Below are positions 3,409 through 7,175 of a DNA stretch of 64,000 nt, in pieces. Source of the DNA: Muribaculaceae bacterium (lineage in GTDB: Bacteria > Bacteroidota > Bacteroidia > Bacteroidales > Muribaculaceae); contig JAMPHP010000001.1 in the NCBI GenBank assembly GCA_023663365.1, positions 1,038,308 to 1,102,307 on the forward strand, written 5' to 3'. A program made the translations under genes and the position numbers. Within the stretch, counting starts at the first letter, position 1; every line of letters begins with the position of its first letter. Below the pieces are notes generated by a model. That model ran no database searches and was not told where the DNA came from. It saw nothing but the letters and a program-made list of their open reading frames with translations.

Positions 3409-3416
3409 TAACTTTG
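3409..3416 (+). promoter_or_regulatory. Bacteroidota-type -7 promoter element (TAACTTTG) 25 nt upstream of the ADP-ribosylglycohydrolase gene
   Basis: GTAACTTTGTAAT at 3408-3420. This is the same extended motif seen at 1264. Confidence 0.4.
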
Positions 3417-3440
3417 TAATCTCTAAACTCTAAACTGCTT

Positions 3441-4226
3441 ATGTTAGGAGCAATTATCGGCGATATCGTTGGGTCGCCCTTTGAATTTGCCAACGTGACA
3501 ACATTCCGAAACAAACCCCTATTTTCTCCGGGGTGCGAGTTTACGGACGATACCATCTGCACCATCGCGGTGGCGGACGCTCTGCTGACTGGGGAAAGTT
3601 TCGGTTCTGCCCTGCAACGGTGGGGTCGTAAATACCCCAATCCAAAGGGTGCGTATGGAGGCTCGTTCAATGCGTGGCTTCATGCTATAAATCCTATGCC
3701 GTATAACTCTTGGGGCAATGGAGCCGCCATGCGTGTCTCTCCTTGTGGGTGGGCGTTTGACTCGGAAGCCGAGACGCTTCGTGCTGCTCTCGCTTCGGCT
3801 GCTCCGACCCACAATCATGTTGAGGGTCTTATCGGTGCTTCCGTCGTGGCTCAAGCCATCTACCGTCTGCGCACCGAGCGTCTGCCGTCGTTCATCTCCG
3901 GCTCTGTTGCCGACCTCGTGGAGCAGTCTTATGGGGAGGATTGGGTTGTGCATCTGCCCCCTCGTGGCGAGTTCGATGAAACGTGTCAGGGCTGCGTTCC
4001 TCTCGCTTTCCATATATGCATGGTCTCTGCGGACTTTGAGTCGGCTTTACGCCATGCAGTGGAGTATGGTGGAGACTCCGACACGCTCTGCGCTATCGTC
4101 GGTTCTCTTGCTGAGGCTCGGTGGGGTATTCCTCATGGCATCAAGAAGCGAGCTCTATCGATGCTCCCAGAGGACATGGTCGACGTTATTCTGAAATTCA
4201 AATCAAAAATGGGCTATGAGTTATAA
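3441..4226 (+). CDS. ADP-ribosylglycohydrolase (ARH/DraG/Tri1-like family)
   Basis: N-terminal GAIIGDIVGSPFEF, then FTDDT, GNGAAMRVSP, THNH, and C-terminal GGDSDTLCAIVGSLAEARWG. This is the set of metal-binding Asp/Thr motifs typical of the ADP_ribosyl_GH fold. Confidence 0.88.
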   Translation: MLGAIIGDIVGSPFEFANVTTFRNKPLFSPGCEFTDDTICTIAVADALLTGESFGSALQRWGRKYPNPKGAYGGSFNAWLHAINPMPYNSWGNGAAMRVSPCGWAFDSEAETLRAALASAAPTHNHVEGLIGASVVAQAIYRLRTERLPSFISGSVADLVEQSYGEDWVVHLPPRGEFDETCQGCVPLAFHICMVSADFESALRHAVEYGGDSDTLCAIVGSLAEARWGIPHGIKKRALSMLPEDMVDVILKFKSKMGYEL

Positions 4227-4539
4227 TAATCCCTTGCTAAAATCTTGCCGCTACTATCGTGGCGAGTCTTCAATTCCTTCAACTTTGAATGATGATGAGG
4301 TTGGTTTTTGGCTTGCTGAGGCTTCAGCGATTGATGCTATGGAAGAAGGTTCTGTTTATAAACTGATGTCTGCGTATGAAGCAGCCGGAGAACCGGGTAA
4401 GGCTACAAACCTTAATCCGATTCTCCTTGCATCTCTGTTTTTCCACTTCTGTAAAGGCTCTGACTATTCTCCGGCAGAATGTGTCTCAGTTTTTGAAGAA
4501 GTATATCTGCCGCGTTATATGGCTTCGACTTCGATGTAA
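4216..4539 (+). CDS. Hypothetical protein (107 aa), apparently translationally coupled to the ARH gene
   Basis: The ATG lies within the last codons of the ARH gene (ctATGAGTTATAA). The 3' end overlaps the 3' end of the convergent MuF-ART gene by 25 nt. Confidence 0.5.
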   Translation: MSYNNPLLKSCRYYRGESSIPSTLNDDEVGFWLAEASAIDAMEEGSVYKLMSAYEAAGEPGKATNLNPILLASLFFHFCKGSDYSPAECVSVFEEVYLPRYMASTSM

Positions 4540-7175
4540 ATGAACGTATTTCCGGCTTTGGTTGTTTCTGTTCGCTTGCTTACAAATCTGTATTTGCATC
4601 TTTTTGATGCAAGAACTTCAGCTTCTCTCTTGAATTGAGATAGGTGCTGAATTGATGTCGCGTTTTTCTGTTCTTTCAATACCAGAACCACACGATTCCT
4701 TTTTATATCTCCAAATTTAGGAGATTTCTCATCAATATAGGCGCCTGAGAAACTTCTTGAAACACTCGCCTCAGTAGACCATGATGCACTTCCCATGTTG
4801 TTGAATGTACCCGAATTCAAGGCTGATAGCACATCTTCAAGCTCAAGGTCTGAAAGCGACATTCCTCTGTAAGTTGCTCCGCCTTTCCACTGAGGCGATT
4901 TCTCGATAAATTCTTCAAGGTTTTTTGCACGCTCCTTGATTTCAGCCATTTTATGTCCGTGCATAGATTTGAATTTGGTGTTTCCACATTGAACTTGGCG
5001 GATTTCCCAATCCCATTGGTATGAGAACGAGTCCACTGCGGTATAATAGGCTTTGGCTTGTTCAGTCGTGCATCCAAGCATCTCCTTGATTTGTTCTATC
5101 CTCTCGGCATCAGAAGCATATCGAGTAGGATGCTCCTTTTGATATTTCGTTTCTTTGGAGGACGCTGATAAACCTGTTGCCTCGGTTTTCCCTTTCTTCT
5201 GCTTGGATATAAGTGATTTCTTCTTCCATTTAGCTGAGGTTATATAGTGATTAGCTGCATGTACATTCTCTGTATCGATTGCTTCTTTCGCTTTCGTAAT
5301 GAAGAGCTTGAAATCCTTTGATGTAGTTTTGAAAGAAAGCAGTTCATTATATGTTTTGGTAATTGCAAGAAGTTCCTGCTTAACCTCCACGTAAGCGAGT
5401 CTCTTTTCAAAGGCTTGCTTTGCTATCTCTTTTGTCTTGTAACTTGATGAAGAGACATATGCAATTTCTTCTTCAAGTTTGTTTTTAAGGAATGAAAGAG
5501 AAGTATCAGTCGTATAATCCCATTTCCACCGGTTGAAAGTACTTTGAATGGCTGCATGGGCTTGTCTCATCTCGTTTATTGTGAACTGCTTGTGCCATTC
5601 GTGGGGATTGTCTATCAAATCAGCAAGGGCTTTCTCCTCTGCTCTCATTGCTTTGAGTGCGTCCATTACCTTTCGGGTCTCCGCTTCCATTCCTGTCAGC
5701 TTGCCCTCTGCAATGAGTTTCGCAAGTGCAGAGTAGTCCACCTCATTCCACGTCTTTGCCAATGCAAGGACGCGGTCTGCATTTCGTTTGATGCGCTCGT
5801 TCTCCTTAATGCGCTGCTCCCATGCGTCCTTGATTGCCTGTATTTCTTCCGGGGTTCGGGCTGCGTGTGCAGCGGCTCGTTTCTGCAAGAATGCGACGCG
5901 ATCGTTGAACTGCTCCTGCGGAAGCGAGGACAGCCCATCTGCACACTCTTTCGGGAGGTATCCGTCAGCGATCGCTTGCTGAATGTTAGCGATTCTGCGT
6001 TCATTCCATGCTTGCTGAATGGCTGCAGCCTGTGCCGGAGTTCGTGCTTCGTACCGTTCCTTGGCTATCTCAAGCGGCGACTTGACAATCTCCGGCTCAT
6101 GTCCGAGAATTGCGTCCACGCGCTTGCGGTTGTCTTTGATAAAATAGGGCAAATTTTCGCCCATCTCTATGCGGTCTTTCCGTTCCTCTATCCAATCCTT
6201 GAAAGCCGCAGGAACGTCACGCACGGTGTTCACGCTGTTCTTTGTCGGCTGTTGTCCGGCGAGTATTCGGCTTGTGTCCTCCGCCATTTCGTCCTCGGTC
6301 TTAAGCACGGTTATTGCTTTGCATCGGCAATGTGGATGCCACCCCACGAATTTGAAATCTTTTGGGTAGCGTCCTGCGAGGGTGTCGCAGATGTCGGTCA
6401 GTGGCACTCCGTTCAGCGTGTGGTTGTTGCTCAGTTTGATTTCGATGCCCACGACAAAGTCCATCTGCTGCCATCGCAGGTGGTCGCTCGTGCGGTAGGC
6501 GATGTTGGTTTCCGTGGCGGCGAGTCTCCGGGCATTCTTGTAGCTGCTTCGGTACACTCCGCGTCCGGGGTGGAATGCTGCGGCTGCTTTGGAGAGTTTG
6601 AGATTGCCGTGCTTGTCCCGGACGCGCCGGAAGAGTTTGTCAGGGTGCTGTAGGTATTGCCGGAGGCTGCGCGTCATCTTCGCCGCGCTCTCCCCGGAAC
6701 GGATTCCCAAATCAAGACCCAGTTCTATCTCTCGCTTGAATGCGGTAGTGTATCTCCACACTCGATCGGAAAGGTTCAACCCTTGCTCTTTGCGTTGCAG
6801 AAAGGCTTCCAACGCCGCGCCATTGGTCGAGAAGTAGCGTTTGTATTGCTCCTTGCTAAAATCGCCGACACGGTCGCCGAAAATGCGCGACACGAGGGCA
6901 TTGTTCTTGTTGTTGCTCAAAGTCCACGAAGACCGCACTCCGTTCACGATTGTGGTCTCCATTGACTGCTGCAGAGCGGTCATGAGTCGCTCTATCTGCT
7001 TTTGTGTCGCAGGGTAATCATCAAACGTGAAGATGCGGTCTTCGGGGAGGTCTTTAATCGACACTCCAATCTTGGCGGCTTCCTCTGCGGCTTTCTTGAA
7101 GATGCGGTCTATTCGCGTCCCGATTGCCGCCATGTTCCGCAGATGGGTCTTGTCGTAATCAGTTGGCTTCGGCAT
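4515..7175 (-). CDS. Phage head-morphogenesis protein (MuF / SPP1 gp7 family) fused to a C-terminal ADP-ribosyltransferase toxin domain
   Basis: The N-terminal third has MuF hallmarks (…AATETNIAYRTSD…, GWHPHCRCKAI). The middle is a long charged helical linker. The C-terminal ~190 aa carry the R-S-E ART triad in order: ATYRG, SASWST, REAEVL. Confidence 0.88.
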   Translation of the reverse strand: MPKPTDYDKTHLRNMAAIGTRIDRIFKKAAEEAAKIGVSIKDLPEDRIFTFDDYPATQKQIERLMTALQQSMETTIVNGVRSSWTLSNNKNNALVSRIFGDRVGDFSKEQYKRYFSTNGAALEAFLQRKEQGLNLSDRVWRYTTAFKREIELGLDLGIRSGESAAKMTRSLRQYLQHPDKLFRRVRDKHGNLKLSKAAAAFHPGRGVYRSSYKNARRLAATETNIAYRTSDHLRWQQMDFVVGIEIKLSNNHTLNGVPLTDICDTLAGRYPKDFKFVGWHPHCRCKAITVLKTEDEMAEDTSRILAGQQPTKNSVNTVRDVPAAFKDWIEERKDRIEMGENLPYFIKDNRKRVDAILGHEPEIVKSPLEIAKERYEARTPAQAAAIQQAWNERRIANIQQAIADGYLPKECADGLSSLPQEQFNDRVAFLQKRAAAHAARTPEEIQAIKDAWEQRIKENERIKRNADRVLALAKTWNEVDYSALAKLIAEGKLTGMEAETRKVMDALKAMRAEEKALADLIDNPHEWHKQFTINEMRQAHAAIQSTFNRWKWDYTTDTSLSFLKNKLEEEIAYVSSSSYKTKEIAKQAFEKRLAYVEVKQELLAITKTYNELLSFKTTSKDFKLFITKAKEAIDTENVHAANHYITSAKWKKKSLISKQKKGKTEATGLSASSKETKYQKEHPTRYASDAERIEQIKEMLGCTTEQAKAYYTAVDSFSYQWDWEIRQVQCGNTKFKSMHGHKMAEIKERAKNLEEFIEKSPQWKGGATYRGMSLSDLELEDVLSALNSGTFNNMGSASWSTEASVSRSFSGAYIDEKSPKFGDIKRNRVVLVLKEQKNATSIQHLSQFKREAEVLASKRCKYRFVSKRTETTKAGNTFIYIEVEAI

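Follow-up and report, generated by a model that had tools for sequence, protein, structure and literature searches.

What kind of system is encoded where a phage head-protein gene runs tail to tail into a short plus-strand gene island is the question posed by a 64,000-nt stretch of the Muribaculaceae bacterium contig JAMPHP010000001.1 (the window, within which all coordinates given here are positions). At this locus, a gene for an 886-aa MuF-type head protein with a predicted C-terminal ADP-ribosyltransferase (ART) domain converges on genes for an ADP-ribosylglycohydrolase (ARH) and a 107-aa protein, and the three-gene module sits in a prophage. The answer that we favor, with a probability of roughly 0.85, is that these genes constitute a Bxa-family MuF polymorphic-toxin module with two immunity genes in a Bacteroidota prophage. 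Homologies, conserved catalytic residues, the fold of the ART domain, gene order and co-occurrence of the genes among relatives are the observations that carry this reading, and its functional content is drawn by analogy from a characterized relative.

That relative is the Bxa/BAH/Bsi system of the PhiBxa prophage of Bacteroides stercoris (Alexei et al., JBC 2024; PMC11699363). Bxa is an antibacterial MuF-ART that modifies arginine and owes its killing of Escherichia coli to a C-terminal ART domain (residues 622-869; catalytic residue E820); BAH, the product of an adjacent ARH gene, reverses the modification and rescues growth, and its E15A mutant fails to do so. Bsi, a small alpha-helical protein, co-purifies with Bxa, has been modelled in its active site and protects in a manner dependent on K89 and E92. 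The genes lie beside bxa in the order RS09440, BAH, Bsi, the first being a short open reading frame (ORF) upstream of BAH that confers no protection, and bxa, BAH and Bsi genes co-occur in diverse gut Bacteroidales (PMC11699363). A first-pass annotation of the window had supposed that no Bacteroidota-phage MuF-ART with an ARH partner had been described, which the 2024 publication shows to be wrong; it also expected cells to be protected through enzymatic reversal, through the small protein or through the two together, and this has been demonstrated for the homologous B. stercoris proteins.

The components of the window module are as follows; the three ORFs, their coordinates and the two overlaps are as first annotated and agree with the ORF list and the sequence.

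4515..7175, minus strand: predicted MuF-ART polymorphic toxin gene, Bxa-like, 886 aa (ORF list, PHROG matches)
6096..7175, minus strand: N-terminal MuF/head-morphogenesis domain, aa 1-360 (phrog_7625, E 1e-64; phrog_1657; phrog_115)
5145..6095, minus strand: middle domain resembling that of Bxa, aa 361-677 (phrog_16625 positions 389-615 of 869, E 2.5e-13)
4515..5144, minus strand: C-terminal ART domain, aa 678-886 (R770, S798-W-S800, E851-x-E853)
3441..4226, plus strand: ARH gene, BAH-like, 261 aa (ORF list, PF03747)
4216..4539, plus strand: Bsi-family small ORF, 107 aa, candidate non-enzymatic immunity gene (ORF list, phrog_19606)
4216..4226, plus strand: 11 nt shared by the 3' end of the ARH gene and the start of the small ORF, possibly allowing translational coupling (sequence)
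4515..4539, both strands: 25 nt over which the coding ends of the toxin gene and the small ORF overlap 3' to 3' in antisense (sequence)

As a whole, the 886-aa protein matches phrog_16625, named 'Bxa ADP-ribosyl transferase' (E 2e-104), and phrog_35295 (E 7e-163); it has 6899 homologues at E<=1e-5, the best of which is 67% identical over the full length. The view that its N-terminus is of MuF/gp7 type stands on the PHROG head-morphogenesis match and on the position of the gene after the portal gene. Among the curated families, Pfam Phage_Mu_F (PF04233) went unreported for the protein even at E<=10, and TIGR01641 (SPP1 gp7) gave a weak match of 19.7 bits (E 8e-4), below its cut-off of 39.65.

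The ordered ART triad proposed earlier is present in the C-terminus, with ATYRG starting at residue 767 (R770), SASWST at 796 and REAEVL at 850 (E851-x-E853). The Pfam check of this region brought up PF03496, though at a borderline 23.3 bits against a cut-off of 23.4, and the ART fold itself is borne out by structure prediction: AlphaFold2 modelled the last 209 residues with a mean predicted local distance difference test (pLDDT) score of 87, and the best Foldseek match of this model is the arginine ART Vis toxin (4xzj, E 1.7e-9), with C2-I, Certhrax, C3, Tre1 (6drh) and a Listeria ART-ARH pair ranking next. Searching the PDB by sequence with the same domain likewise recovers Vis, in an alignment that pairs YRG, EAEVL and the S-x-S region. 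Across 11 aligned homologous ART domains, Y769, R770, G771, S798, W799, S800, T801, E851 and E853 are invariant, so the catalytic Arg and Glu are conserved in homologues; the idea of a decayed or inactive ART was rejected because of this invariance. In the ART fold, an ExE motif goes with arginine specificity. The toxin C-terminus is thus most likely an R-S-ExE mono-ADP-ribosyltransferase specific for arginine, and its ExE motif and Vis-like fold, taken with the presence of an ARH partner, suggest antibacterial arginine ADP-ribosylation.

The last 209 residues match phrog_16619 and not the Bxa C-terminal part of phrog_16625. That part is matched by the C-terminus of the toxin at a related locus, L001, from a GTDB 'Porphyromonadaceae' metagenome-assembled genome (phrog_16625 positions 613-853, E 7.5e-33), and the window ART domain is just 25% identical to this C-terminus over 116 aa. 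The nearest relatives of the window subtype are the ART of a Porphyromonas gingivalis phage and the Vibrio Vis toxin. It is rare, being carried by 5 of the 120 best MuF homologues, and a word-indexed search with the ART domain alone returned only 6 matches. The subtype was also seen in short (150-265 aa) stand-alone predicted proteins (P0166-P0171). A third ART subtype, of YR / FTSTS / QxE type, occurs on Bacteroidales MuF proteins of about 560-585 aa at six GTDB loci (L009, L014, L015, L034, L045, L065), with neither an ARH nor a Bsi-family gene nearby; these loci presumably use another immunity protein. At many further GTDB loci the C-terminus is not an ART, and HExxH or NCQTC motifs are present in some of these.

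The ARH matches Pfam PF03747 (E 2e-33) and phrog_6572 (E 2e-55), and the metal-site motifs reported in the first-pass annotation are indeed intact: GDIVGSPFEF begins at residue 7 and includes E15, TDDT occupies residues 35-38 and GGDSDT residues 210-215. Structures have been solved for relatives such as DraG, ARH3 and a Thermus ARH; the window enzyme itself is 75% identical to the ARH of L001 and 51% identical to that of the P. gingivalis phage. It falls far below the NCBIfam equivalog cut-offs for DraG (TIGR02662, 45.5 bits against 337) and Tri1 (NF041672, 15.3 against 490), and on these scores it shares only a superfamily with Tri1 and DraG. By analogy with its B. stercoris homologue it is a predicted BAH-like enzymatic immunity protein, which would reverse the modification made by the toxin.

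The 107-aa protein belongs to phrog_19606 (E 1.3e-8), as do its positional counterparts, the small ORFs of L001 (E 1.4e-19) and of the Porphyromonas phage005b (E 1.3e-38). Its AlphaFold2 model (pLDDT 74) is all-alpha, consisting of six helices without any strand, which agrees with the description of Bsi. Pfam gave no matches for it, and an exact look-up of the protein in assemblies returned no record; that it is a chance ORF was rejected on account of its conserved family and conserved position. A profile built from 20 members of the family retrieved 785 representative clusters at E<=1e-3 from a library of 1.84 billion proteins. The connection to Bsi itself was made with fingerprints, that is, the residue numbers given in Tables S1 and S2 of PMC11699363, which stand in for the Bsi and Bxa sequences. 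The search with the Bsi fingerprint showed that the second domain of one protein, P0173, carries 8 of the 11 Bsi interface residues in exact register (D28, Q30, N85, R86, K89, Y90, E92 and T94), and because of this Bsi probably belongs to the phrog_19606-type small-protein family. The 107-aa protein is 29% identical to the Bsi-like domain of P0173 (E 8e-9) and has K80 at the K89 position. The family, to which P0172, P0173, P0175 and P0184 belong, includes proteins with 2-5 copies of the domain in tandem (for example, 462 aa with four matched stretches and 569 aa with five), and such tandem-domain Bsi-like proteins look like fused poly-immunity arrays.

Whether the partners belong with the toxin was addressed in a survey of GTDB contigs, in which a profile scan with the MuF-ART alignment gave 80 loci, 61 of them usable in that the MuF gene was complete and had 1.5 kb or more of sequence downstream of it. 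A locus was counted as ART-type if its MuF C-terminus matched an R-S-E regular expression or, by phmmer, either ART subtype, the expression alone having missed Bxa-type C-termini. The counts were as follows.

ART-type MuF C-terminus: 15 loci, ARH in 5, small-family gene in 6
Other or no toxin domain at the MuF C-terminus: 46 loci, ARH in 0, small-family gene in 0

The hypergeometric probabilities are about 5e-4 for the ARH and about 9e-5 for the small family, and the co-occurrence across related phages on which the first-pass annotation had made its reading depend is found for both genes. Relatives came mostly from gut and rumen metagenomes. For the window's own ART subtype, 12 loci were found; the small gene is present in 11 of them (L107 has neither partner), and in all 11 it overlaps the toxin gene 3' to 3' by 17-32 nt. 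A JGI metagenome contig, L109, has a convergent layout identical to that of the window, including the 25-nt overlap, and L001 and L081 show the same convergent arrangement of ARH, small gene and toxin. The small ORF of the window begins with an ATG at 4216, so that its first 11 nt also belong to the ARH gene, which has its stop codon at 4224-4226; at the corresponding junction in L081 and L109 the overlap is 8 nt. Megablast of positions 3000-7500 against phage records gave no match, none of the 80 loci of the contig scan came from B. stercoris, and the Bxa fingerprint was unmatched among the 120 MuF homologues and among the loci. An 869-aa ORF in L094/L095, which has the length of Bxa, was rejected as Bxa, since it carries 1 of 16 fingerprint residues and has no match to the window's MuF N-terminus.

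These counts bear on a different explanation raised by the first-pass annotation, that the ARH is a phage anti-defense enzyme acting against host ADP-ribosylating immunity and is next to the toxin incidentally. ARH-superfamily enzymes do occur in phages in other contexts, and the window gene has the GC content of the phage backbone, unlike the toxin cassette, and is missing from several loci with the same ART subtype. However, the ARH was confined to ART-type loci in the survey, and an unrelated anti-defense gene is therefore disfavored; the ARH stop, moreover, overlaps the start of the Bsi-family gene, and the homologous BAH rescues cells from Bxa where its E15A mutant does not (PMC11699363). 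We regard the anti-defense explanation as very improbable.

Several points nevertheless weigh against equating the window genes with the characterized toxin and its two immunity proteins. The ART domain is not of the Bxa subtype (Bxa residues 622-869), because of which target range and potency may differ. At the Bsi interface positions, the 107-aa protein has D83 in place of E92, Gly in place of Y90 and S85 in place of T94. The homology to the B. stercoris proteins runs through a PHROG named after Bxa, through published residue numbers and through a Bsi-like domain of another protein. Finally, among loci with the window's ART subtype, the window, L081, L087 and L109 have the ARH, and about half of the lineages (L010, L082-84, L105, L106 and L108) lack it. 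Because it is absent from many loci of the same ART subtype, the ARH would appear to be an accessory second antidote.

Under the polymorphic-toxin reading, the cell that produces the late-expressed MuF-ART would restrain it in two ways, with the 107-aa protein as a specific plug and the ARH as a generic eraser. The ARH would strip ADP-ribose from modified proteins, and the 107-aa protein, its translation perhaps coupled to that of the ARH, would bind the ART active site and block it; together, the two antidotes would keep the producer alive during toxin synthesis and probably shield lysogens from incoming toxin. From the experiments on the B. stercoris homologues, the ART is expected to be toxic and to target arginine, and its action to be reversed by the ARH and inhibited through binding. 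The toxin may be packaged and injected, may be released at lysis against competitors or may act on the animal host.

The last of these destinations underlies a proposal in which the toxin is an effector released at lysis onto the animal host and the immunity proteins serve only to prevent self-intoxication before release. Bxa is said to have been first described by Brown et al. in 2021. As summarized in PMC11699363, it was originally described as stimulating inosine release from epithelial cells, and an action on the animal host is raised explicitly in the Discussion of that paper; the origin of most relatives in gut and rumen metagenomes fits the same idea. Nonetheless, the window ART subtype differs from that of Bxa, such that eukaryotic targets should not be assumed, and a related module is found in oral P. 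gingivalis phages. This proposal also overlaps the polymorphic-toxin reading, in that the immunity mechanism is identical in both, and we consider it possible, if rather doubtful.

Packaging underlies another alternative, according to which the ART would be a virion-delivered host-takeover enzyme like T4 Alt and the ARH a later reset, that is, a timing device and not an immunity protein. MuF toxins have been hypothesized to be delivered along with the DNA and perhaps to bias the choice between lysis and lysogeny (Jamet et al., 2017; PMC5576092), and the window ART is fused to a head protein encoded beside the portal gene. Packaging of Bxa-like proteins is, however, a hypothesis, and the presence of a Bsi-like inhibitor family in 11 of 12 loci of the subtype fits immunity better than timing. 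The ARH is also dispensable in many lineages. A role in host takeover is accordingly judged unlikely.

Returning to the polymorphic-toxin reading, composition and identity both point to a mosaic module, as set out below.

GC content of the low-GC parts: ART domain 41.7%, small ORF 42.6%
GC content of the remainder: ARH 54.5%, MuF N-terminus 54.6%, portal gene 54.1%
Identity to L001: MuF N-terminus 86-96%, ARH 75%, ART C-terminus 22-33%, small protein 38%
Identity to L109: MuF N-terminus 52-94%, ARH 58%, ART C-terminus 56-74%, small protein 48%

Flanking host DNA has a GC content of 58%, and L109 shows the same GC split as the window. The MuF N-terminus is 86-96% identical to those of both L001 and L006, and the middle domain is 32-62% identical to that of L001. 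From these patterns of composition and identity, the ART domain and the small gene appear to be a single exchangeable low-GC cassette, and the ARH would track the phage backbone as represented by the MuF N-terminus. The swapping of a toxin domain together with its partner is the classic polymorphic-toxin pattern; here, the ART domain and the small gene would travel together, with the ARH left in the backbone as a generic second defense. A tentative extension of this view, which we offer as a conjecture that may well prove incorrect, is that the ART and its Bsi-family inhibitor form a swap cassette with overlapped ends, that the backbone ARH is a generalist antidote against any arginine-ART subtype and so promotes toxin diversification, and that the Bsi-like family represents a large uncatalogued superfamily of ART-immunity proteins. 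If this were true, a resident generalist ARH would allow a phage to gain a new toxin subtype before the specific inhibitor was fully matched, and the specificity of Bsi-like proteins would be set by the variable loop that follows a conserved 'LLF' motif.

The surroundings of the module identify the prophage and the late operon to which the toxin gene belongs. The relevant features are listed below.

7416..8816, minus strand: portal gene (PF05133 SPP1_portal, E 7e-21; phrog_64)
1321..1554, 1541..1825, 2211..2759 and 3020..3304, plus strand: ORFs of a conserved island upstream of the ARH gene
3020..3304, plus strand: conserved 94-aa ORF upstream of the ARH gene, at the same position as BACSTE_RS09440 (phrog_10608, E 1e-16)
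27415..28581: integrase with a Bacteroidota-type arm-binding domain, a prophage marker

A 522-aa ORF beyond the portal gene (8839..10407) is at the position of the large terminase and had no Pfam or NCBIfam matches; the late head-morphogenesis operon would then run in the order large terminase, portal, 81-aa ORF, MuF, which places the MuF-ART gene in the head-morphogenesis module beside the portal and terminase-position genes of the prophage. The ARH and small genes are the final two genes of a conserved plus-strand island (1321..4539), the ARH being the fifth, and none of the other island ORFs had a Pfam match. The island is bounded by the MuF gene and by a conserved gene for a 225-aa protein (phrog_5824; 368..1045, minus strand), which occupies the position expected for a scaffold gene. 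The 94-aa ORF at 3020..3304, overlooked in the first-pass annotation, is 61-63% identical to called genes of L108 and L109, and in L108 its homologue abuts the small immunity gene with no ARH gene between them. Between the module and the integrase lie a replication module (primase-helicase and other helicase genes), a YqaJ recombinase gene and a DNA methylase gene. Host genes, including those for a histidine kinase and a TonB-dependent receptor with a SusC-like domain set, follow past the integrase at about 58% GC, and the prophage extends beyond the left edge of the window. ARAGORN also reported, at 24750-24837 on the minus strand of the prophage, a tRNA-like gene (tRNA-???) whose anticodon is abnormal in having two bases.

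How the ARH gene is transcribed has a bearing on when the enzyme would be present, and the following element is of relevance.

3409..3416, plus strand: TAACTTTG, a box resembling the Bacteroidota -7 promoter element, upstream of the ARH gene and 25 nt before its ATG (sequence)

The gene had been described as separately promoted. The box exists at this position; separate promotion is unsupported, given a single short box and the possibility of read-through, which is equally open because the ARH is the fifth gene of a same-strand island. The sequence TANNTTTG is abundant in the window (30 copies against 18 +/- 4 expected), so that a lone box upstream of the ARH is only weakly informative. The canonical Bacteroidota promoter has TTTG at -33 spacing, and none was seen at that spacing upstream of the 3409 box. 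The sequence TAACTTTG at 3409 is thus consistent with a promoter without being proof of one, and the ARH may be transcribed from this box, from promoters located upstream or from the two together. Five exact copies of the octamer TAACTTTG are present, at 1080 (minus), 1264 (plus), 3409 (plus), 25620 (minus) and 40149 (plus), four of these being within the prophage. At least four of the five copies lie just upstream of ORF starts (the 225-aa gene, the first gene of the island, the ARH gene and the host gene at 40203), which is where a -7 promoter element of the Bacteroidota would be expected.

A dense array of GGTTAT / ATAACC hexamers occupies the non-coding stretch (2758-2985) that lies upstream of the 94-aa ORF; in it, about eight direct copies phased at 10-11 bp are followed by inverted copies, and two -7-like boxes, TATGTTTG, are located within the array. 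By its sequence, the array looks like a phased putative protein-binding site of operator- or iteron-like character.

The locus provides a clear example of mosaic exchange in which a toxin domain and its specific inhibitor have apparently been replaced jointly and the hydrolase retained. It may be of use in the annotation of gut prophages and in choosing variants for specificity experiments; beyond this it adds little that is new and raises no new question.

Placed among known systems, the window ART is nearest in solved structure and in sequence to the Vis toxin of Vibrio splendidus (4xzj), with which YRG, an S-T-S-like segment and EAEVL align. Vis and ARTs of the C2-I, iota and VIP2 type are, however, free-standing or binary and have no MuF fusion, ARH partner or Bsi partner. 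The opposition of an arginine ART by a hydrolase of the ARH superfamily recalls Tre1/Tri1 of the Serratia type VI secretion system (T6SS) and DraT/DraG, which differ in being concerned with T6SS delivery or nitrogen control and not with a phage head protein; in addition, Tri1 combines binding and hydrolysis in one protein, whereas the window would split them over two. Apk2/Aph1/Tis1 (PMC10083569; also cited in PMC11699363) is likewise a MuF polymorphic toxin with dual immunity, consisting of an enzyme that reverses the product and a small protein that blocks the active site, although it involves (p)ppApp (alarmone) synthesis, unrelated immunity families and Firmicutes hosts.

A closer counterpart is Porphyromonas phage005b_ATCC49417 (PP754928.1), known from its annotation as minor capsid protein, hypothetical protein and ADP-ribosylglycohydrolase. 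It has the same ART subtype (38% identical), an ARH (51%) and a small ORF of the same PHROG (28%), and its layout is likewise convergent; the toxin and small genes overlap 3' to 3' by 32 nt, and the ARH and small genes by 8 nt. Its toxin is shorter (591 aa) and lacks the Bxa-like middle domain, and an HTH_3 regulator and an integrase precede its ARH, neither of which is found there in the window.

The Bxa/BAH/Bsi system itself shares with the window an adjacent ARH with Glu15, a gene for an alpha-helical protein of about 100 aa between the ARH and toxin genes, and a further small ORF upstream of the ARH (3020..3304 in the window; RS09440 in B. stercoris). It differs in that the window ART is phrog_16619-like and has no match to the Bxa C-terminal profile, the toxin is 886 aa compared with 869 aa for Bxa and spaces its R, S and ExE motifs differently, and the small protein has Asp at the E92 position and Gly at the Y90 position of Bsi; the window host is a higher-GC member of the Bacteroidota, and its module is known from sequence alone. 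The system and its dual-immunity mechanism are already published, and the window is a divergent further example with a different ART subtype, one that widens the range of the Bxa/BAH/Bsi system by a second ART subtype and by a Bacteroidota host of higher GC content.

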